A stretch of 53,980 nt of DNA, counting the filler, from Streblomastix strix (lineage: Eukaryota), in NCBI GenBank assembly GCA_008636045.1. It is 2 parts of 2 records of this genome, joined end to end, with 100 filler letters (N's around TTAATTAATTAA, not from the genome) between each part and the next. Parts side by side here need not be neighbours in the genome. Positions count along the whole stretch, not along the records: positions 27,052 to 53,980 come from SNRW01000154.1; 1 more part is not named here. One strand, written 5' to 3'. The number at the start of each line of letters is the position of its first letter. Position 1 is the stretch's first letter. A program made the position numbers and the translations under genes. The notes below the pieces were generated by a model. It did no database searches. It was not told the origin of the DNA and was given only the letters and a program-made list of their open reading frames with translations. This document shows, piece by piece, positions 1 to 53,980 of this stretch.

Positions 1-429
1 ATTGCTCTCTCGCACTAATTAGGAAATATATTTTAATTTCATTAATAGACACCTCTGAGATAATCATCTCGATACATTTTTATTATGCTTATTAGTAAAA
101 GAACTTTCTCATCGAGGTGAAAAGTGCGGCGGACGGACTTTTTGTCCTCCCGGTATCATTATAGTTTTTGTATTAGTAAATGTGTATTAAATCATATAGT
201 TAATAAAATTTAATTTAAAACAAATTCATAAAGCTATAATTTAAAAATAATTGAATAGAAATGAAATAATAATTATTATTGCTTTTTCAATAGATTGATA
301 CGTAAATATATCTATATAACCTAGAAACAATGAATTATTATATTTATATTAAAAATATTTATTATCGATAATTTAAATGTATATATTTGATTGGGCATAA
401 AATATATGTCTATTTTTTTCGTGAGAAGG

Positions 430-1040
430 GGCAAAAGTAGTTTAGTTACATATGAAAAATTTGATATAATTTTTATTGTTAAAGCTTCTGTATTATTTAA
501 ATTTCCAGTTACACCGAAGTTAAAGCGTTTGAATATTTTTTTATGAAGTTAATTTTTCTGAGATACGCATTCTTCATGATGAACAAGTTCATATTCAAGT
601 TCAAATTTTGCAGCTCGCTTCAATGTATGTAAACCAGGAACACTAATTGCTTGAGTAACTCCAATGAAAGGACCATATTACGAGCTTGATGAAAGTAGCT
701 AATTTGTAAAAAACGAAATACTTTAGTAATAAATCATTGCTGATGTTTGAGAAAGAGCTACAGTTTGTATTTGCTGTTTAAATTTAATAAGAAGTGCACT
801 CGCTTCATTGTATCTACAGTAATCAAAAGACGAGAAAACTGTTATAACTCGGTTCTCGTGTGTAGTCATAAACCCACAAGAGAAAAACTAATGAGCGCGT
901 ATTGCCATATCAATGCGGTTTGTTGCTATAAATCGTCTGCATGTATCAAGACTGAATGTATATCTATTTCCATTTGATAAGTCTATATCTCCAGGATCAG
1001 TCCATAATGTTGTTTGCTATGTGTTCTACTCCATAGATCA
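430..1040 (-). pseudogene. PPP-family Ser/Thr protein phosphatase, C-terminal catalytic fragment (5' part not recognisable)
   Basis: Minus-strand translation with TAR=Gln gives TLWTDPGD...RRFIATNRIDMAIRAHQ(TAG)FFSCGF...RVITVFSSFDYCRYNEASALL, matching PPP motifs LWSDP / IRAHQ / TVFSAPNYC. No GDxHG or GDYVDRG found upstream. Boundaries approximate. Confidence 0.7.
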
Positions 1041-2588: not shown

Positions 2589-2759
2589 CAATAAATCAAT
2601 CCGATTTATTAGTAAGTTATATTTGAATGAATAAATATAAAAAAGATTAGTTTGTTGATAAACAGTTATACTAATAATGTTTTATCAAATAAAAATTGCA
2701 AAAAATAACATATGAATCAATTTTATCTATTATATTTTTATTGTTAATACAAAAAATTA

Positions 2760-3330
2760 TTTAAAGAAATTCAAATTTTAAATTTTATCAAATATGAAGA
2801 ATATAAAGAAGGAATTTGCTGTTTACAAAGCAGCTCGTCGTTTGAATCCAAATTTTCCACTTTGATTAATTTTTCATTGCAAATCAAAAAAGAATCAGAG
2901 GGTGAAACTGAGGTATAGGATACAGGAATTGGATCAAGAATGACTTCATTGACTTTCTAATCTATGTTGTCAAATGCTGAAATACGCCATATATTAGCAA
3001 AAGAATCATTAATGAATATCTTTAAAGAAACAACGAAGAAATCGCCTAATTATTCAAACTTACCTGGACTTCTAACTAAGATTGCATATTCAAAATCTGA
3101 AGCTAGAAAACTCTATGAGGAATTATTAATATTATATTCAAGGAATTCAATGGTTTTCAGAAATTTAGCTATATTAATGAGAGATATGTTTATGCATGAT
3201 GATGATGCAGAGATCTTATTCTAAACGTGCTGACACAATTGAGCAGGAAATGTCAGTGATTCAATAATTTTAAAGAAAATAATATAAAGAATATTGAAGA
3301 CAAAGTGCAAAGGAAAGAAGAACGTATCTA
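2760..3330 (+). pseudogene. Fragment of a TmcB/TmcC-like protein (TPR-like segment), frameshifted
   Basis: AVYKAARRLNPNFPL*LIFHC ... SEARKLYEELLILYSRNSMVFRNLAILMRDMFMHDDDAEILF, then frameshift to KRADTIEQE. Resembles the Y..LL..YP.S..VLR.YA....D..A....A..IE pattern of TmcB-like proteins (from memory). At least two frameshifts. Confidence 0.5.
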
Positions 3331-3929
3331 AGAAAGTTTTTTGGATATAAATTATAAAATTGAATTTATTTATTTGAATATAAATAAAAAATAAAAAAGC
3401 TCTATTAAAGAAATATTAAAAATTATTTCAGATTTCTTTCTTATTGTTATTACAGTCTTTATCATCCTCTATTTATTCAATTATTTCAATTAATATATAT
3501 TCAAATCTTGATGGCCTTCTTCTTTTTTTCTTTTTATGCATTTTATTTGCATTATGAAGGAATTATTAGTTCAGATCAACTAGATAATTTTGAGTAAAAA
3601 TAGAAGAAAAACTTTATTAAATCGAAGAATTTGATGGATATATGTGAATTATTTTCCAATATTCTGAGAATTTTTCAATTTAAAACTATTAATTATCTTA
3701 TATCTTTTGAATAATACGATTTGAACTAGTTATTCCATTATTTTATAATAAACATTTCTATAATTTGGATATAATTATTTGAAAGATATTTATTCAAATT
3801 ATCTTTAAAGATAAAATAATGCAAAATGGCAAATGAATCCTTAGATATTTGAAAAATGTTAGTGTAATTTAATTGGGTGATTTTTTTATTCATACTTTAT
3901 TTAGCTGTTTGTTTCTATGAATTAGTTTT

Positions 3930-4850
3930 ATATGAATGAAGTTAAATGTAGAATAATTGATATAATGAGAAGTGGCGCAGTTGATTGCCACTTTTTCGAG
4001 CTGAATTTTAACCCTCAGCTGGGTTATTTGTTGTTTTATGAAGATATTAGCTGTCCTGAAGAGCATAGTTCATGAAGAATTGTTTATATTTAAGTTATTA
4101 CTCAAAAATTTGTTTTCCAAATTATGATTAGTATCCGAGAATATTAGACATATTATTTATATTCATATTAGTTTGAAATTCATTATTATCCATAATATCA
4201 TTTTAATATAATTCACGTACAGATTATATTTGATATTCAGACAAATATTTTATAGCATATGTTTCTATGTCGCGATTTATATGTCAAATGCAAATTATTC
4301 TTTATGATTGCGGAAAAACTGTTCCAATTGTGTTTAGTAATGCTAATTCTCTGACTGAGTGAAAAATTGCTAGATTCAAATCAGTTATTTGGCTAAAAAC
4401 TTATAGAGTTTAAACATAAGATTCTTCGTTTTTATGTTGCATGAAAATGAAGGAAACACAAATGTAATGCATAGTAAGTAGAAGCGTTGAAATAATTATC
4501 AGTTGATACCCATTGCAATTAGTGCCGAAAGTTCCGTCAATATTTATGTTTTGATGATTTATGTCGAATGTTTGTTTACATTATTAATTTAACAAGCACT
4601 CAAATTATATTTCATCATAAAAATTTATTGTTTTAAATATGCATTCTTCTATATTTAACATATCAAACATGTTCTGAATTTGGTGAGGTGGTGATTTATC
4701 TAATTAATTTTAATTAAATCGTGTATTGTTTATAGCTTTGACTCCTATTAAATCTTTATCATTTCTTTGTCATCTTTAATTAATTGCATTCTTCGTCTGT
4801 TTTGGTTCAATATTGGATAAATGCACATCGTTTATTTACTCTTTCTCTTC
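3930..4850 (-). mobile_element. Degenerate Mutator (MULE) transposase
   Basis: Minus strand: INIDGTFGTNCNGYQLIII (~4545-4490), VRELALLNTIGTVFPQS (~4355-4305) and HKTTNNPAEGQNS (~4040-4000) match MULE motifs DGTF..YQL, D.E.AL..A...VFP and TTN..E..N. Frameshifts between blocks. Confidence 0.75.
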
Positions 4851-6197
4851 GTTCGTCAAAGTATCTTCTTACTTTAAAGACGAGGTTTTTTTCTAAATGG
4901 TGATTATGTGTGATTTTTTTTGTCACTACTTCTCATCTTTGTTTCTTTTTTGAATACGAAGCGTAAATTTCAAACGTACAGCCAATTTTTTTGGAAGATC
5001 TCACAATCTTTTTTTTCTATTATTTATCTTCTTATTTATTTATTTCTCCTTCATCATTTTTCTTATCTAACTGAATTTAATCAGGCTAATCAATCTTAAT
5101 TTTTTCTTCACTATTCACTTTATTCGTTATTTTTTCACTTATTTCTTTTTTTTCTTTCTTTGATTTATTTTTTTTCCTTCTCCTAATTCGCACGTAATTG
5201 TGAAGTTTCTTCCTTTTGTTGATATAAATATTATTAAATTCTGATCAATATCTTAAGCTCATCAATTAATTTATTTATTTTCATTATCGAAAAATTTTAA
5301 GAATTAAATTATTAAAATTAATCAAAAAATAAACAATATTTTTTTTAAGGAGAATAAGAAATGTGGCTCTCTCTACAGGCACCCCAATTCGAGAGTGTTC
5401 AAACCTAAAGCTTTGCATATTTTTGCTTATAAATTTAACTGTATTAGTATTTAAATATATCAAATGTAACGTTTAATAAAATTTATATAAATTTTTGGTG
5501 AATTAAAATGAATTTCTTTAAAAAATCTTAGAAATAAGAAATTACCTAATAATTGAACTAATTTTTTGAATTTTATAAATAATTTATATTATTTAAATAC
5601 ATTATATTAGTCAATAATAATAATAATTATATATATAAAGGTATATATGTGGGTAATTATTTGTACAATTCAATGTTTTGTACAAAGTGGATAACTTCTC
5701 AATTTAGTATTAAAATTTTAATATATAATTTATTTACCTTAAATTTTTAATAAAAAAATTTTGCAAAATCAAACTCGATTAAAAAATCAAATTTTTTCGA
5801 AAAATATATTTTTAAGCTAATTTTCTATTAAATCAAATTAAAACATATTTAAAATTTTAAAACTACTTTTAATAGAAAATTTTTATACTTTTTATATTTA
5901 ATGTTCAATTATTAAGAAAACAAATAAAAAATTTTTTTACTTTTTTTTTTAATTGATAAAGAAGGAAATTTGATATGTTTGTTATATAAAATTTTAAAGT
6001 TTTGCTATATTAAATTTAATTTTTTATTTCAAAAATAAAAGTTATCAACCGGCGAATTCAGCAAATAATTGCTCATATTAATTTTTATTTCTACTCAGAA
6101 AAATTTTTACAGTTAAGTAAAAACATTCCGATTACATGAGTTTGATTAGGTACTATGGGTTAAATTAGGAAATTTTGTTCGGAATATATAATATATA

Positions 6198-7491
6198 CAG
6201 TTCGTTTCGTTTCTTGGTTTTTGGTTTATTTTTCAATGAAAATATAATTATTTTTTTTAAAATTTTCATTAAATTTTATATAAAGAACTTCATTTTAAAT
6301 CATTTTAATATTAATTTCGAATATTTATTGAATAAATATTTAAATTATTGACATGTCATATTTTGTCTCTCATTTTTATGATGGTACATTGGACGCTTCA
6401 AAATTTTTTTACTCGTTTCCGTTTAACGGATTCTTTTGAAGCATCGGGCACGGCAGCGTTATCAGCAACAATTTGAGCTTCCATCTCTACAAATGCATTA
6501 TGGTCAATTGCTGCTACAAGCTTTCCTCCATGCATTTCAGCCTTAATACCGCGTGCTCTAAAACTATTTCCAATTGTAATAATTGTAGCTGTCTTTTATG
6601 TGGCATTAATTGCGTTTGTCAATATTTATCTTAGCAACATTTTTGAAATTGCAACCTTTTCCTGTTAGTAATTTATCTTTAGTGCAATGAACTGCGAGAT
6701 TGCCAACCAGAAGCACTCCTTCGGCATTGTGTGGTAATCATTCGATTTTTCGTTGGTTAACAAAATAAGGATCGACAATTTCTTTGACCCACCGTATGCA
6801 TAATTCTGAATTCATCGTATTTGTTAGACGCTACGCTATTATTGCATTTCAGTTTTACAATACCCTATTTTATAGTTGCTCATTGCTGTCAAGATTTCCT
6901 TTACGCTTATCTCTTTTGTTAGATCTTTACGCCAATTTATGTACGATTACTCTCTAGGAAATAAGAGTACCAGTTTCTAGAAATAACAACTTTTGTTCTG
7001 TGATACACCTCCGAACGAAATATCCTTGGCGAAAAAGGTTTGAGATGTTTAATATATTGATTTCTGACCCATTGTACTATTGGCTTTTCTTACTTAGCAG
7101 TCAACTTATAGCACTTCTTTGAGCCTTTTTTCTGGTAAACTCGTCCTAGTTTTATCATGTTAATGTACTGTTTTGTACAATCAATAAGTGAGGCCAACAT
7201 GATATCTGATGCATTCAGAATATTGTATGATCTAATTAGAGACAATATTCGTGCTGCAATAACAGATCTTGAAGCAAATGCAAGTTTTGCCATTTTTTCA
7301 ATTAAGAACATGTTGTGACAATATGAGAGTCACTTTATAGCATTACTGGTAGTTCTCTTAGTATCATTCCTAAGCACCATGAAATAAAAATAAAATTGAT
7401 CAAAATTTCTTTAGCCTAACGCAATTTTATAAATCCCAAAACGAGGGAAAAAATACAAAATAAACCAAAACCTAAAACACGAAACGGACTG
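6198..7491 (-). mobile_element. pogo/Tc1-mariner superfamily DNA transposon (DDE_1 transposase relic) with ~33-bp TIRs and TA flanks
   Basis: Left TA|CAGTTCGTTTCGTTTCTTGGTTTTTGGTTTATT vs reverse complement of right end TA|CAGTCCGTTTCGTGTTTTAGGTTTTGGTTTATT (30/35 identical). Internal minus-strand TMNSELCIRWVKEIVDPYF...GVLLVGNLAVHCT and TIGNSFRARGI are DDE_1-like. Confidence 0.85.
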
Positions 7492-11349: not shown

Positions 11350-11757
11350 TAGTGTAGTGATGCGAATTTTGCGCCATAAATAGTTAAATTAATGGGCTAA
11401 CATATCTTTTAGGGCTTAAAAAACGTGTTAAACAAAGAAAAAGAACAGTTTTTGAATTAATTTGACCATTTGTCCCCACACTGCTTCATGTCACGGAATG
11501 GAGATCACAACTTTCTACATTTCTCCCATAAATTAAAGAACTTTCTCCAAAAAAATATTAAAGTTGAGCTTACTTTAGATAAAACATTGGATAAAATAAT
11601 ACTCAAATAATATACACTTTGAAATTCAAAAAAATTTAGGTCAATTCAATTCAAAAACAGTTCCCTTCCTTTGTTTTGACACGTTTTTGAGGCCTTAAAA
11701 GAAAAGTTAGACCATTAATTTAACTATTTTGGGCGCAAGATTAGCTTCACTATACTA
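11350..11757. mobile_element. MITE / foldback element with ~118-bp imperfect terminal inverted repeats
   Basis: 11350-11467 (tagtgtagtgatgcgaattttgcgccataaatagttaaattaatggg...tttgacc) is the reverse complement of 11639-11757 (ggtcaatt...ccattaatttaactattttgggcgcaagattagcttcactatacta), roughly 80% identical by eye; ~170-bp non-coding spacer. Confidence 0.85.
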
Positions 11758-13159
11758 CTCACCTTCTCGAACGAAACATTATTATTCATGAAGAACTTGA
11801 CATGTTAGTTTATGATTTATCCGAAATAGGTATTATTTATATTTATGAACGGTTTGTATTATTTGATGTCATGTATCATTCTCTCTTCAATTTTAGCTCT
11901 GATTTCGAAATGGTTATAAGTTCTAATTTTGATATAATTTAAACCATCTATAATTCCAATCGCACCCCTCAAATCATTAAATTATTGAATGAAATCAGAT
12001 ATGCGATATAACTTTTATTTGATGATATCTTAATCGTATGAACCTTCGTTGATAATGATTTCAAAATTAATACATCCAAACTTAAATTTATTTTTATGTT
12101 GTTGCTATAGATTCTTATCCAAATATTTGTTGAAAAAGTAGAACTATTCATTTGTTTATTTATCTTCTTATTTTATCATTTTCATAATCAAATGATTAAT
12201 TTGATCGATTTTAAGATTTTTTTTGCTTACGAAATTGATGCCTTTTGTTGTAACATTCTTGAACCAAATCCTTGGGCATAAATCTGTAACGAATCTGAGT
12301 TCTTGATTTTTCGAGGTTTTTGAACATGGTTTCGAAGATATTTAATAACTATATTGTTTTCTACTTATTATTATACATGATTAATTCATCTTTGTATTTT
12401 ATATAACCGATCTTTGAATTTTGATGAATATTTTAGGAAATCTGCCACTTGTTTCATTTATAACAGCTGCACCAATAGCAACATTAGTTTCTCATAAAAT
12501 TAAAGTTGTATATTTTGCAAATTCCACTTTAGAAAGTATTTTTTTGAAAATACTACCTCAAAGATATATTTCATCATTACCATTAATGGTTTAAAAGCAT
12601 TACTGCATTTAATTCGACGATTTTTCATTTTCTAAAATAATTTGCCACACTTATCAAATGTGAAAGTTAACAGCTTCTTTTGTGATGAAAAAATTATACT
12701 AGGTTGTGGCCTAATTGCTGTTTCAAGTCATACATTTAGTTAAGCATCGGATTTCAGATAAAGTTTTTTACATAGAGCAAAACGAAACAATTAACAAGAA
12801 TATTCTAAAGCATATTTCAGATTGTATTCGATATCATCTGCGAATTTTTGATATATAATACCCGTTGTATTTCATATTAGCATAAACTATTTTTATAATT
12901 ATTTTTTCATATCTTCTCGTTCAATTAGTTTTTGGTAAAATATTATTTGAATTAATATTTTTTTTGGCTTCATGATTATATACTAAATTATACACTTTTG
13001 CGTATGTAATAGCAATTATATAATTTCAGAGAATTATTAGTAAAAAATGAGCAGTTTTATTTAAATAAATTTTTATTTGTTGGTATAAAATTTATAAATG
13101 AAATGTTTTTGTGTTTACATGAGTTAGTGCGAATAAATTTATCAGTCATCTGTTTCCAT

Positions 13160-14573
13160 TTCTTTTTTATAAACGAATCCGTAAACGTTTTTTTGTGACT
13201 CGTCATTTCGGCGGTGGTCGCAGTTCAGAAGCCATTACATTGTCAGATTCGACTCTATTTAATATTTTATTAAACGCATCAGTCATTACAGATGCAACTA
13301 GTTTACTTGCTTTCACTTTGTGCCCGATTCCAGCCATTTTAAATGCAGTTTGCATTGTTCCAAGTGATGTTTCCTTACCATATGCTTCAATGATATTGTA
13401 ATCGTTCGATTCTGGTGTTAATTTAATTATTGCGCCTAATGTTCTCTAAATATTCTTCTAAAGTACACTGAAATTGAGCAAATCTCAAAGTTAGTGAAAT
13501 CCTGTCGGGTTCCGTGGGAAAGTTAGCATAGATTTATTGTATGCAGCAAACTCTATTTTAAGCTCATCAGTAACATGAATTGCGCAATTATCTTGCAGTA
13601 TTACAGCTCGTTCGTTTGGACGATGAAGTCTATCTCTCAGCTCTTCGACGTATGGAAAAAGACGCAGTGGCGCCGACTTCATGAATAATTCTGCATTGAA
13701 ATTGCCAGTTTCTGAACCCATTATTATTGTATTCACACCTTGCTTTATGTCTTTCTATAATAATGCTTTTTTATCTGGCTTTTTGGCGATAACAAGCATC
13801 GGCACATGGGTCTCACCACCTAAACTGACGCATTCGTATAACGGTACTCATGTTTCACTTCCATCAAATCCATATTTCTTTGTTGAATCTCATCTTGAAA
13901 ATGGCACTATGAATAATCTAATTTCTGCTTCCCCAAAGTTCCAAATTCCGCATTCTTCTGCGTTTAAAACGAAACATGCAGGGTCGCCTTCCACGTGCTC
14001 ATATAATTCGTCCAAATATTTTCTTATATCAGCTTCTTCGACTATCGTTCTTCCGTACTCTCCTAGCTCACATTTGACAATTGATATTTCTTCACTATGC
14101 CGTAAAGCGAAATATTTTTGCCACATCCTGGAAGCTTCGATTTCGAATAGCTTTTTTTACTATAGCTGAGAGTGTTGCTATTTATAAAGCTTTATCATCA
14201 ATCCACTCTAAGATTTCATATGCCAATATTGCATTTTCTCTGGCCTCGTACAGCTTTTATTTCCTTATTTTCTCGTACTTTTTTTTTATCTTCATGATTT
14301 ATCCTTGAAACAGTACCCTCGCTTGCATGGCATATTTCAGCGATTGTGAGGCTGTAAATATTTAGGATACATCCCTTTTTAAGTTTGTTTATCTACTTTC
14401 TCACTAAATTCGAAAGTATATTTTTTATTAGTTTCCCCAATTTGTTGGCAATATCCCTGCTATCAACTTCTGCATCTTGTCCTAAAAGAAGCTCCTCGAT
14501 ATGTTTTTATGGTGCAGTGCGAAATAGACTCTTTTTCGTACAGATTCCTTTCTAAAATTTGAATTTTCTTCAT
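13160..14573 (-). mobile_element. Degenerate pogo-like DDE_1 transposase (HTH, CENP-B-type HTH and DDE_1 segments)
   Basis: ASRMWQKYFALRH (S.GW..F..RH), FVLNAEECG (N.DETG), GNFNAELF...AVILQDNCAIH...LTFPRNPTGFHQL*D (LLDN..H / PPN.T..LQP.D) and TMQTAFKMAGI. Several frameshifts; no TIR found. Confidence 0.8.
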
Positions 14574-16034
14574 ATATTTATGGGCGATAATTTTAAAAAA
14601 ATTTACAATTTACTTTATATATGCAAATGTATACCTCTCGCTTATATACTATTCAAATTTACATCCATTTATGGAATATTCATTGAATTCACGAATCAAT
14701 GAAACCAACAAGGAGATCACACTACTGTATTACTTAATTGTTTCGAGATGACGTAAATAAAAATAGGAATGAAAATGTAATAATGAAAATATAATTTTAA
14801 TCATGTTCTTAGATAAAAAATCATATTCATTTACGAAAGAAAATTAAATAAGAAATATAGCTCTATTCGATTGATTAATGTTCAGCACTAATCGAAAAGT
14901 TATGTCTACGATTTTTATTTTTAATTGATTTCATAATTTTGTTACATGAAATTTGTTATCGAATTTAAAATAAAAAAAATTAATATATTTTTTTTTCCAA
15001 ATTGATTGTCAGAAATTAAGTGAAATCCATTAACTTGGTTTCTAAAATTCCGTTTCTGCATAAAAACAAAAAAGTGAAAACTTTAATTTTATATCTGATT
15101 TGTTTTTGCTACCTTTGCTTCCTTTGGCAATAGATCAAAATATCACTGATATTTAAACGGTGTGAATATTGATTGAAATGTAATTGGAAAATCGAATGAA
15201 AATAAATGACAAACTACTAATTTCTCATATTTGTGATTCAATTTTAAACACTAAGTAATGCATAATTTACTTAAAAACTAAATAAAAATAATGTGATTTT
15301 CTAATACAAGATTTATATTCAAAATCATTTAGCGTAGATATATTATACAAATTCTATGGATTAGAACTGGTACCAACAAATGTTTGATTAACAAATTCAG
15401 CATTTCTTTACTTTAGGCAATAATTATCTTTAAAATAGCGTTTTTATGGTGAAAAAAAATTTGAAAAATTTCCACTTTTCCAGGAAAAGTGAATAAAAAT
15501 AATTTTGAGAAAAAAAATTTTTTTATAAAATCCATTTGGGTTATTCAAACTTACTTAAAATAATTATATTTAAATAATAAAATACATTTAAAATATCTTT
15601 AGTTTGATTAAAAACTTTAACAATAAGTTTGAATTTAAATATTAATTTTAACTTTTCAATTGCTTTATATAATAATTCAATTCAACAAATCGCCAATAAA
15701 TCACACTTTAAATTAAATTTTTATATATTTATGAAAATATATTAACTGTATATACAACAATAATAATTATTGATTTTCTTCACTAATTGATTATATAAAG
15801 ATAAAATAAAAATTTAATTAATGCTATTAAAATAGAAGAAATCCAATCAAAATGAAAATATCATTAATTACTGAATAATAACAGGTAGATAAATTATTTT
15901 TATTATTCACATTTTTCTTACTCGATAATAGTAGTCATGTAACGTTTTGACATTGATTACAACTTAAATCAATATTTTAATCACCTTGAATCAATAAATT
16001 ATTACTTTAATTCATTATTTCTTAGAATTAATAT

Positions 16035-21592
<5,558 letters not shown>

Positions 21593-22099: not shown

Positions 22100-22722
22100 A
22101 TGGGAATTGACCTCATCGCAGGAGGCCGCTCGAAAAAGACAGTAAAAAGGACGACAAAGAGCACAGATCCATATCATCAGCTGCTTCACAAGGTATTTAT
22201 ACAATTAATATGTTATGCACTATCATTATTTTCATATATTATATTATTTATATTCAGCTATACCATCATTTGGCTCACAGAACAGGAAACAAATTCAACA
22301 AAGCGATTGCACACAGATTAACACAGAGCAAGAGCGTCCGTGCACCATTATCGCTCAGTAAAGTCTCAAGATTCCTTGCAGGTCGTGAGGACAAAGTAGC
22401 TGTGGTAGTAGCAACCGTAACTAACGATGTCCGTCTCCTAGATGTCCCAAAACTGAAAGTAGCAGCTCTGAGATTCACCGAAACAGCTCGTGCCAGGATC
22501 AATAAAGCAGGAGGTCAGTGCCTGAATCTTGATGAAATCGCAGCTAAGTTCCCAACAGGAAAAGGTACAGTGCTCCTTCGTGGACCAAAGAGCCATCGTA
22601 CAGCAAACAAATACTTTGGTACTCCTCCAGGTGTTATTCACTCTCACACTAGACCTCGCACTCTTACACGCCGCAGTGAGAGGAATCGTGGGTTCAAAGG
22701 ACAGTTGCGCCACAAGCACTGA
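22100..22722 (+). CDS. RPL18: 60S ribosomal protein L18 (eL18); exons 22100-22192 and 22258-22722
   Basis: MGIDLIAGGRSKKTVKRTTKSTDPYHQLLHK|LYHHLAHRTGNKFNKAIAHRL...VVATVTNDVRLLDVPKLKVAALRFTETARARINKAGG...PTGKGTVLLRGPK; GT-AG intron 22193-22257; ends TGA. Confidence 0.97.
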
Positions 22723-23318: not shown

Positions 23319-24526
<1,208 letters not shown>

Positions 24527-25028: not shown

Positions 25029-26684
25029 TCAACTCCTCATCTTAAGTCTTACATTTCTTATCATTCGTCTTGTCAGTTTTGTCCTGCGTGATCTGTTCAA
25101 GAAAGAATGTAAATTTTATTAATATATAAAATAAAAAAGTAAATAAATAAAATAAATAAAGAGAAATACTTTCTTTTATTCATTAATTGTTCATTATTTC
25201 CTAATGTTTGTAATTCAGATTAATCAAAAGTTAATGATTCTACAAATAAATATAACGAAGAAAAAATAAATATATCAAAAATAATAGAATTGTTATATAA
25301 TTAAATCAAATACCATCTTTCTTTATCAATTCAGGGAAAAATTCCTGTAAATAGAATATTAGGAATAACAATAATAAAAATAAATATTGATCTTAAAAAT
25401 TAAATAATAATACCTTCATTTCTCTTCTTTCTATTTTTCTCTATTTTTGAAGCTTTTTTCTTCTCTTCCACATGTCTTCATGAACCTGAATATTTATAAT
25501 AATATAAAATGAATTAATATTTAATAAGCATTAAATTATAATTTATTAATATATACCTTCTCTCTAATTTATAATTATATCTCCCTTAATCTTTTCCTCT
25601 CTTATTCTTCCTCTATATGATACAAATATAGAAAATATAAAGATATAAATATATGAATGTATTCAATATAGACAAAGTATGATAATATATATGAATAACA
25701 ATAAACCTGCTTATTATCTTTCTTTCATTCTTTATTTAGCTTATGACCCTTAAGCTCTAAAACTAATAATTCCCTTCACTTTCCCATAATCTTATTCAAT
25801 ATCCTTCTATTTCTCTTTCCCAAATCCAACATCTGTTTGAATATGAATTGCAATATCCTTCTTGTCTATTGATGATAGTGAAGACTATGTCTATTCATGT
25901 GAAGTGAGTGAATTGATTGATGTTTATTATTTAATTTTCATTTATTGTTTGGGTTCTATTTATTATTATTATTCATCTTCATCTTCATCATCAAATTCAT
26001 CTATGTCTCCTAAGAGGAAATCAAATTCATACAAGTCATCATCATCTAAATCTTCATCTATATATTATTCTTCATTTATTAATCCATTTTCATTATCTTT
26101 ATTCTCATTCTATACTTCAATAGTATCAATATTCTCTTATTATATTTCATTATCATTATTATCATTATTTCTTTCTCTTTCATCTTATTCTTTTCTTCTT
26201 TCTTTTTCCAACATTAATTTCTCTTTCTCTTTTTATTCCATTTTCTTCTTCTCTTCATCTTCTTTCTATCTTTCTTCTTCTTCATCATATTCTTCATCAT
26301 CTTCATCAACATCATAATATCCTTTCTCTTTCTCATAAAGCATTTTATATATCTTGTCTGTTTGATATATGTTTCTTTTATTAATTAATTAATTATATTA
26401 ATATTAAAATAGTGTGATAATAATAAAACAATAATAAAATATACTTAACTGGTTCAGAAGCACGTGCAAATACAACATAATCTCCTCTCCTATTTAAAAA
26501 TAAGAAAATAATAAGATAATTAAATGATTGATAAATATAATTATATGACTAACTTTAGTGATGTTGTTGAAAGCATCGAAAAATGATGTGTTTTCTTTTT
26601 AATTATTCCCATTAAACTTGTGTCTTCTTCATTTCCATTTGTTAATTATCCCTTTTAATCATCAATTTCAGCATAAATTTCACC
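25029..26684 (-). CDS. Hypothetical multi-exon E/K/R-rich (coiled-coil-like) protein, 5'-incomplete; in-frame TGA at 26629
   Basis: Exons with phase-compatible GT-AG introns (...FNNITK|ERGDYVVFARASEP|...); ends SRRTKLTRRMIRNVRLKMRS-TGA. 5' end lost near the contig edge. Confidence 0.6.
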
Positions 26685-26951
26685 TTTATTTGAATAATAA
26701 GAAATTGAATAAATAATAAATTGAATAAATAATAAATAGTAATTAAATGCAAATCATATAAATATTTATAAGCGAACTTTATAATATGTTAAAATTAATC
26801 ATGTTGTTCAAAATTAGTGAAGCCAAAATAGACTAAGCTTGTGCACCCTGGAATAATTAAAAAGAAAACACATCATTTTTCGATGCTTTCAACAACATCA
26901 CTAAAGTTAGTCATATAATTATATTTATCAATCATTTAATTATCTTATTAT
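26508..26951. repeat. Perfect ~102-bp inverted duplication at a contig end (26508-26609 vs 26850-26951)
   Basis: Exact reverse-complement match by eye, ending at the N run. Confidence 0.9.
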
Positions 26952-27051
26952 NNNNNNNNNNNNNNNNNNNNNNNNNNNNNNNNNNNNNNNNNNNNTTAAT
27001 TAATTAANNNNNNNNNNNNNNNNNNNNNNNNNNNNNNNNNNNNNNNNNNNN
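26952..27051. other. Artificial contig-joining spacer (N-run, TTAATTAATTAA, N-run)
   Basis: TTAATTAATTAA places TAA in all six frames and is embedded in Ns, as in linkers used to concatenate contigs. Confidence 0.9.
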
Positions 27052-27437: not shown

Positions 27438-27942
27438 ATGGCAGAAGCAGAAAAAGGCGTTCATCTTAACATTAAAGTCCGTAGCAACACAGGCGGTATA
27501 CATCTTTATATCAAGCTTCAGTTTCATGATTTTTTTACTGCTGCCGCCGTTATGTAATTTTTTTTAAATATTTTCTAATAGAGGAGGTGTACTTCAAGAT
27601 CAAGAAGAACACCGCTCTGAAAAAGTTAATGGATGCATATTGTACTCGTGAGAATCTCGTACCGAACTCAGTTCGTTTCCTGTGTGTACTTGCAGCAATT
27701 TTATTTTATTTTTTCAAAACTGTGATGTTTGACCTTAACCCTTTTTTATTTCAGCTTCGATGGCAACCGCTTGAAGCCTACTGATACACCCGATCAGGTT
27801 CGTAACATGATCTAATTAAAAAAATCTCTTATTCATATTTTTTTTTATTTACGCATTATTTTCATCCGCCTGAACTGGATAGCTTGATATGGAAGATGGG
27901 GATATGATAGATGTTCAGATTGAGCAGTCTGGTGGATGCTGA
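27438..27942 (+). CDS. SUMO: Small ubiquitin-like modifier (SUMO), 4 exons
   Basis: MAEAEKGVHLNIKVRSNTG|EEVYFKIKKNTALKKLMDAYCTRENLVPNSVRFL|FDGNRLKPTDTPDQ|LDMEDGDMIDVQIEQSGGC-TGA; di-glycine motif followed by one residue. Confidence 0.96.
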
Positions 27943-28666: not shown

Positions 28667-31600
28667 TCAAATGTGATATACATTGCAAAACATTCCCGTC
28701 AGATCAAGAAATCGAAAGGTTTAAGATATTTTGCGATCTGACCCAAATCCAAATACTTTGAACATTTTAACTTCCATTATTTGCAATCCTCTTAGATGAC
28801 TATTTATTAATTAATTATATAAAAATTAATTTAAATATAATGAATATATAAAAACAAATTAATTCTGTCTAGAATAAAATACTTTTATTTATAATTGTTT
28901 GAAGTTTATTTTATTTTATTCAATAATTCAATCATCAGAATAATTATATTTATTTCCATTATTTTCATTTAATTATAGTTTTTATTGATTTTCTATCCTA
29001 TCATCTTCTATTTTCTTACATTACAAATATTAATCTATTTGATGATTTTATTTTTGTTGAATATCTGACAGATTTTCATTAAAATGCTTACAACTTAAAG
29101 AAAGATTATTATCAGAAATTGAATGATATTAGTAATTACCAAAAATAAAAAATATTATTCCAATCTAATATTAATTTAAATTATATTAAATATTTATTTT
29201 ATTAATAATAAATTTTTCATTATTAAATATGAAATGAAAAAAAATTCATACTATGTAAACAAAATTTTACTTATAAAAATATTTAGAATTTGTTTCTTGC
29301 ATTACTTTTTATCAATTGATTAGTTTTGAAATGTAAATAAATTTTCTGTTATTATTCATGTTTCTTATCAATTTCTATAATATTCAATATGTTTGACTTA
29401 TTTAAATAATTTTTAACTGAAATTTAATGGGAGAATGTGAATAAATATATTTTGTATTATTGATGCTGTTATATTTTCATTTTCCCATCAAAAATCATTT
29501 CTCTTTACTTAGATTTTGAATATCTTTTATTTCATTTATTTTATTGGATTTATTAGATTTATTTATTTTCTTCTTATCCAATTAAATTCTAATGAATTGA
29601 TACTGATCATCATTTCAATTGTAATTCTTATTTTCATTACTAATACATATTCCTCCTTCTTAATTAAACATAATGAATTCCGTTCCACATATTTTATTTA
29701 TTCCATTTGAACAAAATTTGTTCATTTTCAATATTTCAGTAATTAGAAAGTCAACAGGGTCATCAGAATTGAGAAGTTCTAATTCAAAATCATCATTTGT
29801 ATAGTCAAGATTGAATATTTCTGGCCATGATCTATTTATACTTGCTTAAATATTCTACTAACCATATTCTTTTTAACATAAAGATTAATTATCAATATTA
29901 TTCTTTAATGTTTATTATTTTCTATGAGAAGGTGATTAATTTACTTATTCTGAATGAAGTGCTGATCCACATCCGCAAATCCATCCCTCAGGATATAGTA
30001 TATGAGCATGAGGAGATGTACATGTTTTAATTGGTATATGAAGTGTGTTAGGAGATGGTTTGAATGAAATGGATTATGATGGCTATAATTATTAATTTAA
30101 ATATTAATGAGATGAATTGGATTTGAAATTAGATTATTAATGAAGCTGTGATTGTACTTATCTAGGAGATGTTGGTGGTAGTGAATTATTAGTAAATAAA
30201 AGTGATCGTGGAGAAAAAAGGGGGAATATTGAAGAAAATATTGGCTTTTATTACTTAAGTTAATCATTTCTTGGAGATTAAAGCAGCTTTATTTGATTAT
30301 TGTTTTAATCTTACTTAAATGATTATTAATGGAGAATAGAATGAGTTTAATCATTTACATAATCAAAAGCATTATTATTTACTAGATATGAAAGATCGTC
30401 CAATTGTTCGATATTTTCCTCCAAATTAAATCCTGCTTAATGTTCTTCATTTAATAATTTTCTCATTTAATTTCTCTCCTCTCTTTTTTTCACAATCATT
30501 ATTCTTCTTCTTTCACTCTCACTGTTTTCTTCGATAAATATTTTATTTAAATCTTGAATTTATTCTTGATCTTTAATTTAGTGCAATAAGTCTTCATTGA
30601 TTTATTATTTATAATCGCATTAATCTCTTTCATCATTTTCTAATTCAATGTCTGTTATTTTATTCTAAATTGTATTTTTTATTTTATTAAGTGCAAGTTT
30701 TGGAATATTTAATGGCATTTAATCATAAAAATTCTCTTGTTAGAAAATATCTTCTTTGTTTTCTTGTTAGAAAATATCTTCTTTATTCTCTAATATGAAT
30801 TGATCTTATTCCTTTACTTATCTTATGTTTGAATTAGAATTGATTTAAGTAATTATTTAATGTATTGGTTAAAATTGTTTTGAATAAATTCTTTTTCAAA
30901 TTTTCTTTTCTTAATATTGATTAGTTTTTTAACTGTTAGTTTATTCCACTATAGGTTCTAAGAAATTGTTTTTGATATGCAAATTTTCTTCTTAATTTTG
31001 GAATTATTATAAATTTGGCATTAATTGTAAGGAAGATATTTAAGATTATTATAAATTATTTTATTTGTTGGTTCTTGAATTTTCAAGTGAAAGAGATTCA
31101 TCATGTATATTCTGAAGATTTTCTATAGATATTGAATCTGAGCATGAATCGTGAGAAGATTATTTATTTATTTACTTCTCTTCATTTTCCATATTTAAAT
31201 CTAAATTCTATTATTATACTGTTTATATTGATAGAGAATCTTGAATATGATTTTGTGAATAATTCGTTTTGCTATCTGAAAATATATTATCACGAGTATT
31301 TTAATCATTACAATACTCTTTATTGTGAAATCTCAAATATACAAATCCATTTTCAACTTTATGAATATCATTCATGCTTGCAGAAATTTATTCGAAGTTT
31401 GAATGTTTATTATTATTGTCATTTTATTTTATAATAATATTCTTTTCCATTGTAATATCATTCATTTCAGTTAAGTTATCTTCCAATATCTGATTATTAA
31501 ATATTTAATTATTAATCAGTTATTTTTCTGCTTTCTATAAATTTTCATTTGTAAATTTATTTTCATTTTCATAGCAATTAACTTTCTTCCTCAGTTTTAA

Positions 31601-32350
31601 TTTCTTCTTTTTTTTCTTTTTCTTCAATTTCTTATTTTCATCAGAAACATAATATAAGTAATTATCTTTCTTTTCATTACTTGAAATTTGATTTTTAATA
31701 ATTCAATCATCAGAATAATTATATTTATTTCCATTATTTTCATTTAATTATAGTTTTTATTGATTTTCTATCCTATCATCTTCTATTTTCTTACATTACA
31801 AATATTAATCTATTTGATGATTTTATTTTTGTTGAATATCTGACAGATTTTCATTAAAATGCTTACAACTTAAAGAAAGATTATTATCAGAAATTGAATG
31901 ATATTAATAAATATTAATATTAGAAGATTATTAATTATTTAAATTTAATTTCATAAACTAATTTTATGATTAATTGATATTTTTGTTTATGTGAAATGAT
32001 TGTTAATTAGATGATGATTATGATGATTATGAAGAAAATGATGAAGAAGAAGAAGATATGATTGGTATTGGTGCAAGATGAGGTGAATATGGATGTAATA
32101 TTGATTCATTTTCAAACGATTTCACAAGTTGTGGAGTTGAAAAACGATTTGGAAGATGATTGGAAGAATTAGTTGAACGAGATGATAATGATTAACGTGG
32201 AGATTAAAAAGATGTATTTCATTATGATTATGATGAGGAATAGAATGATTATGAAGATGCTGGTATAGGAGAAGAATGTTAAATGTGAATATTATTGATA
32301 GAATTGTGACTAGTAATCTATGAAGATGAACGAATTCTAACTATTGGACA
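28667..32350 (-). CDS. Large hypothetical Q/N/S-rich protein (~1200 aa) with 9 in-frame TGA codons; start and true stop uncertain
   Basis: One frame held for ~3.6 kb (probable intron 29165-29251). Typical low-complexity composition plus globular-looking blocks: YPEGWICGCGSALH; SWPEIFNLDYTNDDFELELL; LRGLQIMEVKMFKVFGFG...FRFLDLTGMF. Confidence 0.65.
28922..31906. repeat. ~210-bp direct duplication (28922-29131 = 31697-31906), in frame within the same gene
   Basis: Identical by eye; offset 2775 bp is a multiple of 3. Confidence 0.9.
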
Positions 32351-33239
32351 TTATTATTCAGCATAATTTTGTGATTTATTTTGTGAATTGATCGTACTAA
32401 AGATAATAGGTATATTTTATTTATATTTTTTGTCTATTCTTTTCACTCAAACTTATTTATTTCTATGGATTTATTTATATAGATTACAACTTTTTTGGAA
32501 GAGCTATTGCAAGAACAGCATAATTTCCTCTTCACTAATAATGTGATCTTAATGATGTTTAATATGCTTTATCAGAAATGAGGATAAATTTTGAAGATCT
32601 TGAATAATTTCGATCTAAATGCACATCTTTGAAATTATTCTTACCTTTCCGTTTGTTCACAAATCTTTTTATATACATTTTTTCTTTCATTTTTTTTAAC
32701 AACCAATTTTATTCTAGAACTTCCCAAAGGTCTATTTCATGTACAATCAGATTCGTTTCCATTCAAATTTTAACATCAAATGCAGTATATTTCAAATAAT
32801 TAGCTTCTTATACATTCTAATTTACCTTCTTTTCCTGATATACGAACATATGACTATTTTTTTGTATGTATTTATTATTGATTTTCGTTGAATTAATATA
32901 CTCTTTAATTATCAGAACTGGAAAAATTAGCAAATTCAATCAAAAACAAAAGATTCAAAACATAAAAAGGATTCATTAATTGCACATCCACCCAATTTTA
33001 CTTCAAATGCAATGTTTAATCAACCTCCTGCTCCAACATCTCCTTCATTCATAACTTCACAGGTCAATGGGATATAAGATACTAGAAATGAGATAGAAAT
33101 AAGTGAAATTGTTCCATTGAATAGTATTTCTGAATTGGAGAATGTAGTTGGAGATTAGTAAGAAGTAAAATAGGATATAATATAAGAAAATTAAGAAGAT
33201 GAAGATTTTGATCTAATGAAATTCAATCTTTATGCATGA
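32283..33239 (+). CDS. TAF8: TAF8-like TFIID subunit (histone-fold/BTP region plus TAF8 C-terminal motif), at least 4 exons; start uncertain
   Basis: Phase-compatible introns 32410-32482, 32651-32717 and 32864-32915 give ...FCDLFCELIVLKIIDYNFFGRAIARTAQFPLHQQCDLNDVQYALSEMRINFEDLEQF...LLIHSNLPSFPDIRTY, similar to TAF8 HIPSHFPEFPDPHTY. Ends TGA 33237-33239. Confidence 0.6.
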
Positions 33240-48428: not shown

Positions 48429-51400
48429 TCAATTAAGAAATCCTGTACAATTTGGTGCACCACAGTGGCATGGCACTCGTGTTTCTTCTGGTTCCAGACT
48501 GAATTTATAATCATACGTGATTTCTTCTCCTGTCTTAATAGCACGTTTGGAGAAAATCACAATTTTCTTCAGACCGTTATCATTTACAATCTCAGCAAAG
48601 CAATTAGGTTCGCAGCTATGATTAATATAGCGAGCTAAATTCCCTTTCTTAGTCGCATCAATAAGACAAAGACGATCAATTCCAAACATGTAGTTTGAAG
48701 GATTTCCTTATCGTTTGTACAACTCTTCACGGAATTATCCCACAGAATGGCGTATAATCTCACCAATATATTCAATAACAACATCTCCAGGAGATATTGG
48801 CTCCATTGTAAACAAACCCCAGTCATGAATTCTTGATCGATCAAATCTGAGTCTCTTTGGACGTCCTCTTTCTCTCCAAATAACAGAAAGAACATTTTAT
48901 CTGTCTCCAAGATCTGATAAAGCAGAGAGTCTCAATTCTGATGTAGTTGTTGGATCAACACGAGCTGATGCCAATGTTTCTGCTAGATTATTAGACAGTC
49001 CTTCAAGTCTGGCTTTGTTTCTCATTGTTTCTATTTATTCTCTGGGATCTTATTATTAATTCTATGTCTGTTATATGTTGGATGTAGCTTCAGCATGGTC
49101 ATTAGCAGCAGATACTGCAGCAACAAATGCAGGTGATAGAGCATTGGCATCAATAGCAGTTGGTGATATATGACTGGATGATATCATTGTAAAAGGAGAG
49201 AAAGTTATAACAGATCCTGATGATGATGAAGATGATGAAAAAGATTAATGTAAATGATATCCTCTTACATATGATGGTTTTGATTAACTTGCTTAAATGA
49301 GAGATGAAGGATGATTCATAACATAACTACGTGGAATAGAGTCTACCCTCGCAATTGAATGTAATGGAGGAAGAGGAATATGAGTCAATTCACTTAATTA
49401 ATCTTTAAGCATATCAAATCTGCTAAATTCAGGAATATATGGTGAGCATTTATGTGACATTAAACGAAGATGTTTGACTGTTTAAATTAAATATTTATTA
49501 TTAAGAGATGAAATATTATCAATGCTTGAATCTGCATTTTCAGTTAATAGCTCCTAATTGTCAATTAAATATATTATTGGTTTAATTTATTATTAATTAT
49601 TTTAAGAAGGAGTTGTGAATGATTAAATATTTTAATTGGATTAAGATGATTATTATGATGGAGTTTATTATGTTAACTTTGAAGGATGCATTTCCGTTAT
49701 CTCAAAATGATCATAATCAATTGCCATATTTTAATGATCTGATTTAATGTCATTAACTGAATCCTTCTAAATAGTTACATCCTGTTTTTATTTTTCATTC
49801 TCAATTGTTTATTTATGAAAATCTAGAATCATTTATAATTAATTCTTCTTAATTTCATCTCCAAAGAAATCTCCAAATGTTTAAGAAATGTTTTATTTAT
49901 TAATTTAATTGTTTAAAGTTGGTTATTATATTACATTTGATGGATTCATATTTAATTCAATATTGAGATTTTAGTAAATAGAGTGAAATGTGGTCTTCCT
50001 TTATTTATCATATATTCCACACTAATTGAATCCATCATTATCTTCTTCTTTCAAATTATTATTAATCTAATCTTTATTCATATAATTATTATCTTCATAT
50101 TAATTATAATCTAATTTTCTTTCATCCTTTTCAAATCCAAATCCAAAATTAATGTATCCGTTATTCTTTTTCTTTTACTATTATAATAATTATTATAATT
50201 GATATTAATCATTTTAATTATTTATATTAATTTCACTTTATTATTAAAATTCAAATATACTTTTATCCATTTATTACTAATTATTGGTATTTTCTCCTTC
50301 AATTATAACAATCGGTTTACTTTATGTTAATTTATTAATTAGTTCTCTTCGTTTCATAATAATCTCTTCATCAAGAAAATCAATGAATCTACCCAAAGGA
50401 AGTGAGAAATAATCAAATATATCTTCTTCTTCTCCTTCTTCTAATTCATTCTCAATTTATATCTAAGAAGAAGGTAATGTCTATTGTTATGATTCTTATG
50501 GTATATCTTAGATCTCATGTGAAACTGTTAACTTTTATTATTCTTTATCTTATTCTATGTTATTTGATTGAAGATTCAATTCTATCTTATTGTGGTCTGT
50601 ATCAATTACATTTTCTATAACCTAATCTTAATTTTAATCCAATTCTTAAATAGTTTATTCTTTTAATGTATTATTGTTGCTTATATTATCATTCAAAACA
50701 TCATCATCTTTTATCATTTAAACTTCTTTCTCTAACTCTTATTATATATCTTTTTCTTTCTCTTCCGCTTTGCTTTAATTCTATTCACTATTTTCTAATA
50801 TAATTTCTTATTCATTTAATTTCTCTTATTCCTTCTAATCCTTATTCTGATCTATTTAATCTTTTTCCATTAATTTAATTTATTATTTATTTTATTATGA
50901 TTATTATTTCTTTCTCTCATTTTCACGTTGGATCAAAAATCTCTACATTAGCAAAGTGAAGTGGGGAAGAGTAGCAAAAGGATGACCTCCAAGTTATTTG
51001 AACAGTTATCTGAATCTCATTTACAGTTTGTGAGGAAGAAGTGATTGACCAATTGGACGTTACTATTACTATTACTAATACTGGTTAGATTACTTTCTTT
51101 CTCTTTCATTTAGTTGTTGCTATTATTCATACTCTTGTTGTGTTTAGTACACAAGAGGTTATTAAAGCATCAACTATTCTACTGCAATGTTCTATCTATG
51201 CTGTCTTCGAGCTCTGATTCCAGATCTGCTCATTTCTTAATTCAATTCAGAGTCCTTCTATTTATCCATTCCATTTATTCTCTCGTATTCTCTTTCTATT
51301 TTCTTCTCCTTCTTTTTCTCTCTTTCAATTCTTTTATTTATTTCTTCTTATTGTTATTTCATTTCAAGACTTTTAATATTACTTCCTTTATCTATTTAAT

Positions 51401-53980
51401 ATTCAGAAATAAATTCATCTTTTATTATTCCATTATTTTCATCAAATTAATTCTATTTTGACTATTTTGCATCTTCTTCTTCAAATTCAGCGAATAAATC
51501 ATCAGAAATTTCATCTCCTTTTTAATCATCCTTTATTTATCTAGATTACTGATCTTTCATAATTTTGTATTAGTTTATTTAGTTTTATTCATTCTATATT
51601 CTGATATTCTCCTCTTTCTTATTGTCTTTCAGATCATATTCTTTAGATTCAGATTAATCATTATCCTCACTTTCTGTCTTAGCCAACACTGCTGCTGCTG
51701 CCTAAGCTGCACTTCTCTTCCCAATTCCTGCAATGTTCTGCAAATCAGTGAATACATACTCTGGCATAAAGTTGTGCTTATCTGCTAAAATAATTAGAGC
51801 AATCTTTGCATAATCTTAATCAGCTCCATATTATTCAATTTCATTCTATTATGCTGCCCTTCTATCTTTATTTAATTTTAATCCTATTAAAGATTATTAA
51901 TTAAATTAATTCGCATTAGTATGTTAATCATTTTTTATTGATTTAATGTTATTGTTAATATTATTATTGTTGTTGTTAATTCCATGTTATGTCCAATCTT
52001 TATCTTTCTTTATTTCTTTTTCGATTATTTTCTCACTTTCCTATTTTATTTCATCTTCATTTTCAAATTTGAGATGAATTTATTATTCTTTCTTTTATCT
52101 CTTTATTTTAACTTTATCTTTTGATTAATGTCTTTCATTTTCTTTTTCTTTTTTCTTAATTTTATCTTCATTAGGTGATAATGATTATTTTATATAATTT
52201 GAACTCTGATTTAAACCATTTCTTTCTTAATTTTATTATTCATTCTTATACTTCAAAGTTTAGGAGAATTCTTTCTTAGTTCTTTTGTTTGTATTAATTA
52301 ATTCAAAATTGTGATTACTAGTTTAATCATTAATATCTAATTCTGCTGATTAAGATATGTCATCATCAATGCTATAATCATCGTATTAATGCTTATTTTA
52401 GTATTCATGAAGATTCTCTTTTCTTTGATGCTTAGATTATCCTTCAAAATCATTTTCTTTCTTCAATTTTTTATTCTTTTATTCTTCTTTCTTTTCTTTC
52501 TTATTTTCTTTCTTTATAACCAATCCATTACTTAATCCTTTCTTATTTGATGAAAGTGATTCAAAATGAGTAATTTATCCATTTTATTAGATATCTACTT
52601 CTTCTTCTTCTTATTATTATTATTATTAACTAATAGAATTATTAGATTAAGGAGATGATGAGATATGATTATTAATATTTGATGATTATGAGAAAGGAAA
52701 TGCATTTACATCTGAGGGTGATTACATCTCCTTCAATTTCATTTCTTCTGTTTTTCTTTTCTTTCTTCCTTTTATTTTATTTTATTTTTATTCTGATGTT
52801 TCCTTATCTGTAATTATTCTACTTCTTTATTTTTATGTTTCCTTTTCATTTTCTATTAATTCTACATTGTCAGATTAATAGTTATTTTCTTTATTATGTT
52901 TCTATTTGATCGGAGTAATCGATTGCTTGTCTTATTTTGTCTTATTAATACTCTTCTTTCTTTCATTTCTCTTATCAATATTAATATCTTCATTTTCTGA
53001 AGACATAATATCTGTTGCCTAATTCATCAATATTAAAGAGTGTTTCTTAACTTATTAATCTTTATTTGCTTTTGGAGATTCTTTAGTTTTAATCCTAAAT
53101 TTCTTCTTATGATGTTTTTCTTCTGAATTAGATGATTTGCTTTAAACATCTTAACTCTATGAAATTGATTCACTTCTATTTTCTTTCATTTTCTTCCTTC
53201 CTCTTTTCTTACTCTTCACATCCAGATCTTCTTCTTAAATCATATTATCTTTCCTATTCAATAGAAGATGCTGTTGATGATTAGATTATACTGACTATGA
53301 AAGTGAGGATGAATCTAAACGTCTTCTTTTGGATCCACTTTCATCCACATTCTCAATGTCCTTTTATTTGTTTCTCTTTCCTTATTTGTGGTGATGCATC
53401 TTTGGATTAATTAATTTAATATAACTTTGAATATCATTTTCATTAATTACAATATTATCATCTTATTCTTCATCTCCATCTCGCTTCCTTTTGCGTTTTT
53501 CACTCATCTTTGGATTATCCCAAGGAAATAATCTATTCAATTCTCTCGTCAAAACAAATTCATGTTTTAATTCAGATTTGGGACTTGGATATTCAGTTGA
53601 TGGTTAGTTTGTGATCTAAACAGGATTATCTGGAATGCTTCTTTTATATCCACGACCTCTTCCACGCCCTCTCCCTCGTCCACGACTTTAATTTGGCAAT
53701 TCAATGTTTATTTTGTCATGAATTCTTTAGTCGCGTTCTGAACTCATAAAATCCTTGGCAACTTGAAATGCAACAGAATGAGATAGTTAATCATCGAGCA
53801 GATTATGAAGTGTATTAAGTTCATTATCTTCTATCTTACTATTATTAATTATTTCTTGTGTCATATATTGAACATCAACAAATCTAAAAGAAAGAAGAAA
53901 GTAAAAATAGGATAAATACAACAAGATTTATCATCAATACACTAAAAATTCAAGTCAACAGATAGTGATGAAGATTATTA
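48429..53980 (-). CDS. SET1: SET1-like histone H3K4 methyltransferase with C-terminal SET and post-SET domains; 5' end outside the window
   Basis: [32 protein letters not shown]...YMFGID...[21 protein letters not shown]...[10 protein letters not shown]...[16 protein letters not shown]. Frame open ~5.4 kb with TAR=Gln; [10 protein letters not shown] at ~53650-53685; probable intron near 53884. Confidence 0.9.

Follow-up and report, generated by a model that had tools for sequence, protein, structure and literature searches.

Internal TGA codons in two adjacent genes of Streblomastix strix and a probable arginine reading of UGA

In seven spirotrichs (Uronychia setigera, U. binucleata, Sterkiella, Tetmemena, Stylonychia, Paraurostyla and Uroleptopsis) the codons TAA, TAG and TGA are read as glutamine, glutamine and arginine (Q/Q/R), and for Condylostoma magnum as well as Parduczia sp. 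the code is an ambiguous one with tryptophan at TGA (Q/Q/W), for which proximity to the poly(A) tail has been proposed to govern termination (available part of PMC10089648). The published code of Streblomastix reads TAR as glutamine (Keeling and Leander 2003, as cited in the accessible portion of PMC13002328). Here we describe a stretch of 53,980 nt of DNA from Streblomastix strix, an oxymonad protist living in the termite gut (GCA_008636045.1; hereafter the window), consisting of two joined parts of which positions 27,052-53,980 come from SNRW01000154.1. Two adjacent genes in divergent orientation, one encoding cytosolic carboxypeptidase 5 (CCP5/AGBL5; 33944..39958, plus strand) and the other an orphan protein (29498..32446, minus strand), contain internal TGA codons, and their sequences suggest that UGA is probably bifunctional in S. 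strix, being read as arginine inside genes and as a stop at their ends, which corresponds to a Q/Q/R code.

S. strix resembles the spirotrichs in that TAA and TAG encode glutamine, a low-frequency internal TGA falls at an arginine column and TGA is also terminal. It differs from them in belonging to Metamonada and in the nature of the evidence, which consists of one conserved site and polymorphism rather than a genome-wide profile. Since Metamonada is a different eukaryotic supergroup, an origin independent of the ciliates is most likely, and Q/Q/R would probably be a known type of code that was reached independently in a distant lineage. As in Condylostoma and Parduczia, all three stop codons can probably be sense in S. 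strix; unlike in these organisms, where UGA is tryptophan, the sole assignable host-gene site is arginine, no TGA was found at a conserved tryptophan of a host gene, and Trp-like TGAs are seen only in a frameshifted MULE transposase. Compared with the published Streblomastix code, the reading of TAA and TAG and the ending of genes with TGA agree, and the internal TGA is the difference. The 2026 oxymonad paper PMC13002328 inferred codes from tubulins and has no occurrence of TGA or UGA in the portion of its text that was accessible, nor does UGA occur in the accessible portion of PMC9161772. A literature search, whose scope did not extend to the S. strix genome paper, Keeling and Leander 2003 or supplements, turned up no account of internal UGA from an oxymonad.

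Under NCBI table 11 no open reading frame longer than 170 aa exists anywhere in the window. Table 6 alone gives long frames for DNA polymerase alpha (Pol alpha), SET1 and CCP5, which confirms TAA and TAG as glutamine codons, and CAA/TAA swaps are present among the differences between sequencing runs. TGA still terminates genes: it is the stop in 7/7 of the gene ends examined, with no instance of TAA or TAG as a terminator at these seven, and the terminal TGA of SET1 (48429..48431, minus strand), which served as a control, lies at the exact end of Set1/MLL chains. Because TGA ends genes and yet sits in intact frames, once at a near-invariant arginine, UGA is likely arginine when internal and a stop at the end.

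CCP5 and its internal TGA codons

The CCP5 gene forms a single frame of 2004 codons, ending at the TGA at 39956, with TGA at codons 621, 775 and 1437 as its sole interruptions and no frameshift. The first of these (35804..35806, plus strand) falls at a conserved arginine column: when the site was masked as X, 163 of the 176 covering homologs (out of 181) had arginine and none had tryptophan, the others being K (4), Q (3), S (3), I (1), C (1) and V (1). The codon is aligned without gaps to the arginine of human CCP5 and lies upstream of the motifs HPGE (708), DLHAH (940) and YTLEC (1020), and the catalytic motifs are kept. Introns were looked for as GT..AG pairs of 40-130 nt, with scores taken from a model of base composition that was derived from nine of the window's introns (T-rich, 50-90 nt long, scoring 3.3-9.6), and no such pair spans codon 621. 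The second TGA (36266..36268, plus strand) is codon 775, within an insert, and the next methionine after it, codon 973, is already past DLHAH. The third (38252..38254, plus strand) is codon 1437, in a low-complexity tail. The N-terminal domain and the M14 motifs of human CCP5 (PDB 8v3q, 8v3m) align to the S. strix protein with an E value of 2.5e-58; unlike the human gene, that of S. strix has long Q/N-rich inserts, and it needs at least one, and probably two, TGAs to be decoded ahead of the catalytic motifs.

Among the internal TGAs of host genes, the single one that can be assigned is placed at an arginine column (1/1), and for the remaining six there is no column of aligned homologs; the residues around these six comprise 10 R, 4 C and 2 W among 360. 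The conserved tryptophan columns 55 and 100 of CCP5 are encoded by TGG. Selenocysteine does not fit the site, as the column is an arginine column (C in 1/176) and the window has no Rfam match. Table 6, with no TGA in functional frames, does not describe CCP5 either, given its TGA at Arg 621 and apparent purifying selection.

The NCBI model for S. strix, KAA6402990.1, is letter-identical to five stretches of this frame, which identifies the window as S. strix DNA. It deletes nt 35072-35830, including the TGA at 35804, and ends at the TGA at 36266, losing DLHAH and YTLEC. The model thus has invented introns and a truncated CCP5 around the TGAs, and similar damage may affect further S. strix models.

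Sequence variation was drawn from sequencing runs, some of them labelled as termite gut metagenome, among them X1, which is possibly the source sample, X2, which belongs to another study, and X3, of a kind not on record. Two X2 contigs (35699-35868 and 36142-36320) retain the TGAs at 35804 and 36266 and differ from the window at three positions in all, each of them synonymous and two of them AGA/CGA swaps. Sequencing error at these two TGAs was rejected on account of their presence in X2. Over the gene as a whole, 13/18 of the X2 and X3 differences among those listed are synonymous, against an expected 21-29% (P 4e-6 to 2e-4); of the listed ones that lie downstream of the first TGA, 4/5 are synonymous (P 0.008-0.03), so that no relaxation of selection after the stop arose is seen. 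That both populations share the stop while the gene still shows synonymous variation speaks for decoding of the stop. One X3 contig is unspliced across 33906-35570.

The orphan gene on the minus strand

The original prediction concerned this gene, in which it described a single long minus-strand frame (28928..32221) with nine TGAs, several of them in basic contexts, which implied a sense codon, probably for arginine. All nine of the listed tca triplets are present in one frame, with no frameshift when TAA and TAG are read as glutamine, although the count was incomplete, as a tenth TGA lies at 29246. The frame is continuous, yet it comprises two zones, a coding-like core and a tail with a chance density of TGAs. 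The sense reading so implied, probably as arginine, is supported mainly by the neighbouring CCP5, outside the predicted interval, and only four of its own sites are coding-like. The basic contexts that had been pointed out come for the most part from the five 3' sites, in the stretch where TGA density is that of chance.

The core (29498..32446, minus strand) belongs to a Q/N/S-rich orphan gene and has 983 codons, four internal TGAs and no frameshift. Against 22.5 TGAs expected from the all-frame TGA rate of the window, four represent a depletion (P=2e-6), and codon scores are positive across 29540-32360 except for a single window at -1.0. The four sites are SQSQ*NTS (32219..32221), which no 40-130-nt GT..AG pair spans and which is kept in X1 and X4 contigs; SDD*II (31703..31705), in copy 1 of a duplicated block, with a best frame-keeping intron score of -13.1; KKI*KRIY (30896..30898), with a best such score of -5.5; and YN*ND (29615..29617), with -10.8, which is either internal or the true stop, with 39 coding-like codons separating it from the TGA that follows at 29495. 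Sequence flanking the core TGAs has exon-like scores. It is suggested that the gene is translated through the TGAs at 32219, 31703 and 30896, and perhaps 29615, as arginine. At none of the ten TGAs spanned by X1 contigs (29246-32219) do these contigs show a different base, X1 being possibly the source sample, and no X2 piece across the four core TGAs was found among the 8 pieces listed (with 234 further pieces in both runs).

The tail (28928..29497, minus strand) has six TGAs, at 29495, 29477, 29384, 29312, 29246 and 28928, in 190 codons, for 4.3 expected (P=0.27), and mostly negative codon scores. These six, comprising five of the nine listed earlier together with 29246, are not distinguishable from chance; because of this density and these scores the tail is probably non-coding, as a 3' untranslated or intergenic region. 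A candidate frame-keeping intron from 29251 or 29260 to 29165 (scores 8.0 and 6.5) would remove the TGA at 29246, and a longer gene is therefore still possible. The duplicated block noted earlier around 28928 and 31703 proved to be a true two-copy repeat (28919-29153 and 31694-31928, about 210 nt identical). An assembly artefact was rejected on the basis of a separate 210-nt X1 piece (31697-31906) at double depth, 71.6 against 34-47 in its neighbours. In X2, a piece covering 28891-29122 departs from the window at 10 of 232 positions.

Upstream, a candidate 5' extension (32447..33316, minus strand) continues in the frame of the core. Its part at 32447-33020 has 8 TGAs in 205 codons, for 4.7 expected, and the first in-frame ATG downstream of the TGA at 32447 is at 31954. 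Five of six X2 differences in the extension fall on third codon positions, yet across 32420-32900 a better score is obtained for the frame shifted by one base. The CGA of the window at 32885-32887 is replaced by TGG in a single X2 contig of 151 nt (depth 2.4), two codons that are linked via TGA or CGG. In Pfam, one of two other upstream frames had no match and the other matched TRCF only (E 0.31).

The orphan protein belongs to no Pfam family. A homology search, proposed earlier as a check, was run with TGA as arginine and gave no match among 1.84 billion representatives, by sequence search, with remote look-alikes outside its scope. As it has no homolog, the orphan protein cannot name the residue at its TGAs, and taken alone the gene could be either a read-through gene or a young pseudogene.

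Weighing the reading of UGA

Several observations weigh against a bifunctional UGA. Homology assigns only one TGA of the window, and a nonsense change by chance could account for this lone conserved site. Internal TGA is absent from Pol alpha, which has 60 arginine codons among the 1225 codons counted, and from SET1, which has 86 among 1811. The CCP5 counts of variants are based on 40 of 122 differences, mostly in single contigs at depth 2.6-5.5, and may include errors; moreover, one X3 contig has three frame-shifting single-base insertions in CCP5, which are absent from the overlapping X1 and X2 pieces. No visible difference in sequence context was found after internal and terminal TGAs, a likeness that would also fit a reading dependent on position and not on a motif. 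The lack of frameshifts is persuasive only if indels amount to at least about 5% of substitutions, and at an indel:substitution ratio of 0.02 the probability of no frameshift is 0.24-0.27 for CCP5 and 0.14-0.17 for the core. In the core, the visible run differences are 3 synonymous and 4 non-synonymous, in a disordered protein without an ortholog. Relics of mobile elements also contain TGAs. A MULE transposase relic (3675-5400, minus strand) is frameshifted, with its FAR1 and MULE domains in different frames, and two of its TGAs (4284 and about 4930) occupy sites that look like tryptophan; read as tryptophan versus arginine, these give 23.3 versus 16.3 bits for FAR1 and 41.0 versus 39.9 bits for MULE. 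A DDE_1-like transposase relic (13302-14699, minus strand) has several TGAs and a weak Pfam match with TGA as cysteine only (E 0.012). TGAs at such Trp- and Cys-like sites indicate that TGAs arise here by decay too, and they also leave room for UGA as tryptophan or for a mixed near-cognate reading.

Both genes might accordingly be young pseudogenes or null alleles, with nonsense changes (such as CGA or AGA to TGA) in a genome that is biased towards AT and whose sole stop is TGA. This would agree with the TGAs of the relics, with the depletion of CpG in these genes (observed/expected 0.46-0.49) and with the 3 synonymous and 4 non-synonymous differences in the orphan gene. It is considered unlikely, as the catalytic motifs of CCP5 are kept, two of its TGAs are common to both studies, and its differences are 13:5 in favour of synonymous ones and 4:1 after the first TGA among those listed. 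The mobile-element relics are frameshifted and CCP5 (2004 codons) and the core (983) are not; seven TGAs and zero frameshifts in two adjacent genes have a P of about 1e-3 to 2e-3 at an indel:substitution ratio of 0.05, taken as the product of the values for the two genes. Another possibility is that UGA is read through as tryptophan, or as a mixture of tryptophan, arginine and cysteine, by near-cognate tRNAs as in the Q/Q/W code of Condylostoma and Parduczia, these three residues being near-cognate products of UGA according to the available part of PMC10089648. The two TGAs of the MULE relic that fit tryptophan, and the TGG for CGA at 32885-32887 in the single 151-nt X2 contig of depth 2.4, speak for it. 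We regard it as quite improbable in view of the complete lack of tryptophan at the CCP5 site (0/176), the TGG at both tryptophan columns, the 26 TGG codons in Pol alpha, SET1 and CCP5, and the scarcity of tryptophan around the unconserved sites (2/360), while the frameshift between the MULE domains means that decay of TGG to TGA explains the Trp-like TGAs.

The same protein could result if the mRNA were edited from U to C, giving CGA (arginine) in an unchanged frame and leaving the ribosomal meaning of UGA as it is. U-to-C editing is known mainly from plant organelles, and the X3 contig over 33906-35570, which ends before the first TGA and is of no recorded kind, has no more than 2 T>C differences, each of them shared with X2 DNA. 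Editing is considered very improbable. Finally, the TGAs could lie within longer or atypical introns and be spliced out, as the NCBI model has it for the TGA at 35804. Weak intron candidates exist for the TGAs at 36266 (a 45-nt intron, score -4.6, a further point against decoding) and 38252. Skipping 35804, however, removes a motif conserved in 163/176 homologs and the synonymous X2 changes at 35819 fall within the skipped part, whereas the nine window introns are T-rich and 50-90 nt in length and the flanks of the core TGAs are exon-like. Splicing therefore has hardly any likelihood.

If UGA is arginine inside genes and a stop at their ends, its decoding may rely on an arginine tRNA with the anticodon UCA, which is one change away from UCG or UCU, or on near-cognate pairing at codon position 1. 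Such a tRNA would outcompete a weakened eRF1 within the mRNA, and closeness to the poly(A) tail would restore termination, as described for Condylostoma and Parduczia. No tRNA gene is present in the window. Whether S. strix goes further and has no dedicated stop at all, with UAA and UAG as glutamine and UGA efficiently decoded as arginine throughout the genome and terminating only near poly(A), is a finely balanced matter. The two genes have 3 (CCP5) and 4 (core) internal TGAs, against 88 ordinary arginine codons in both. Internal TGAs are found in these two genes of the window, with none in the exons of a CaMK kinase or the aligned stretches of PPP phosphatases. A codon-score scan of 2,452 TGAs with 40 codons on each side, which misses short exons, revealed no further host-gene site among the top 45, the top ranks being mostly antisense shadows.

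Other features of the window and implications

Besides CCP5, the frames that are open with TAA and TAG as glutamine comprise Pol alpha (41057-46030) and the SET1 methyltransferase (48429-53930, minus strand). The CaMK kinase (23319-24400, minus strand), SUMO (27440-27942, plus strand), RPL18 (22111-22722, plus strand) and two PPP phosphatases (15875-21592, plus strand, and 192-1037, minus strand) have T-rich GT-AG introns of 50-90 nt, and their exons that were examined have no internal TGA. For the PPP phosphatases a PDB match was obtained for 1/3 frames, with aligned stretches free of X, the mask for TGA. A Pfam search with ten further frames of the window gave no match except one at E 0.039.

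Other relics and repeats were also observed. A metagenome scan with the DDE relic returned 1 locus at 44% identity, which was not used. A frameshifted TmcB-like fragment (2601-3300, plus strand) has 71% identity over 63 aa to S. strix EZS28_045750 and is preceded by a 99-nt tandem repeat (1816-2607); a search for TmcB-like paralogs, among which proteins truncated at arginine columns were to be sought, yielded 1 protein, which is too few. A coding-like relic (6401-7180, minus strand) has internal TGAs and no Pfam match, and its part at 6401-6811 has no relative in viral contigs. An 83-nt inverted repeat (84%; 11350-11757) with a 242-nt spacer resembles a miniature inverted-repeat transposable element and adjoins a transposase-like relic (11646-12491). 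A perfect 102-nt inverted repeat (26508-26609 and 26850-26951) beside N gaps (26952-26995 and 27008-27051) probably arose as an artefact of amplification or assembly.

Prediction of the public S. strix proteins treated TGA as a stop, and the CCP5 model is short of one conserved motif as well as two catalytic ones; judging from this one gene, claims on the gene content of S. strix could need re-annotation. If UGA were decoded as arginine throughout the genome, there would be a nuclear code with UGA as arginine outside the ciliates and an ambiguous code in Metamonada; the orphan protein would have at least 1,200 residues with at least 12 UGA-arginine codons, and splitting or false splicing would affect many of the public S. 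strix models. If the bifunctional reading is correct, a metamonad that lacks mitochondria would have arrived independently at a code in which all three stops are sense, with the rarely reported UGA as arginine. S. strix would then offer a test, outside ciliates and trypanosomatids, of termination without a dedicated stop codon, as well as of whether reading UGA as arginine needs a new tRNA or near-cognate pairing alone.

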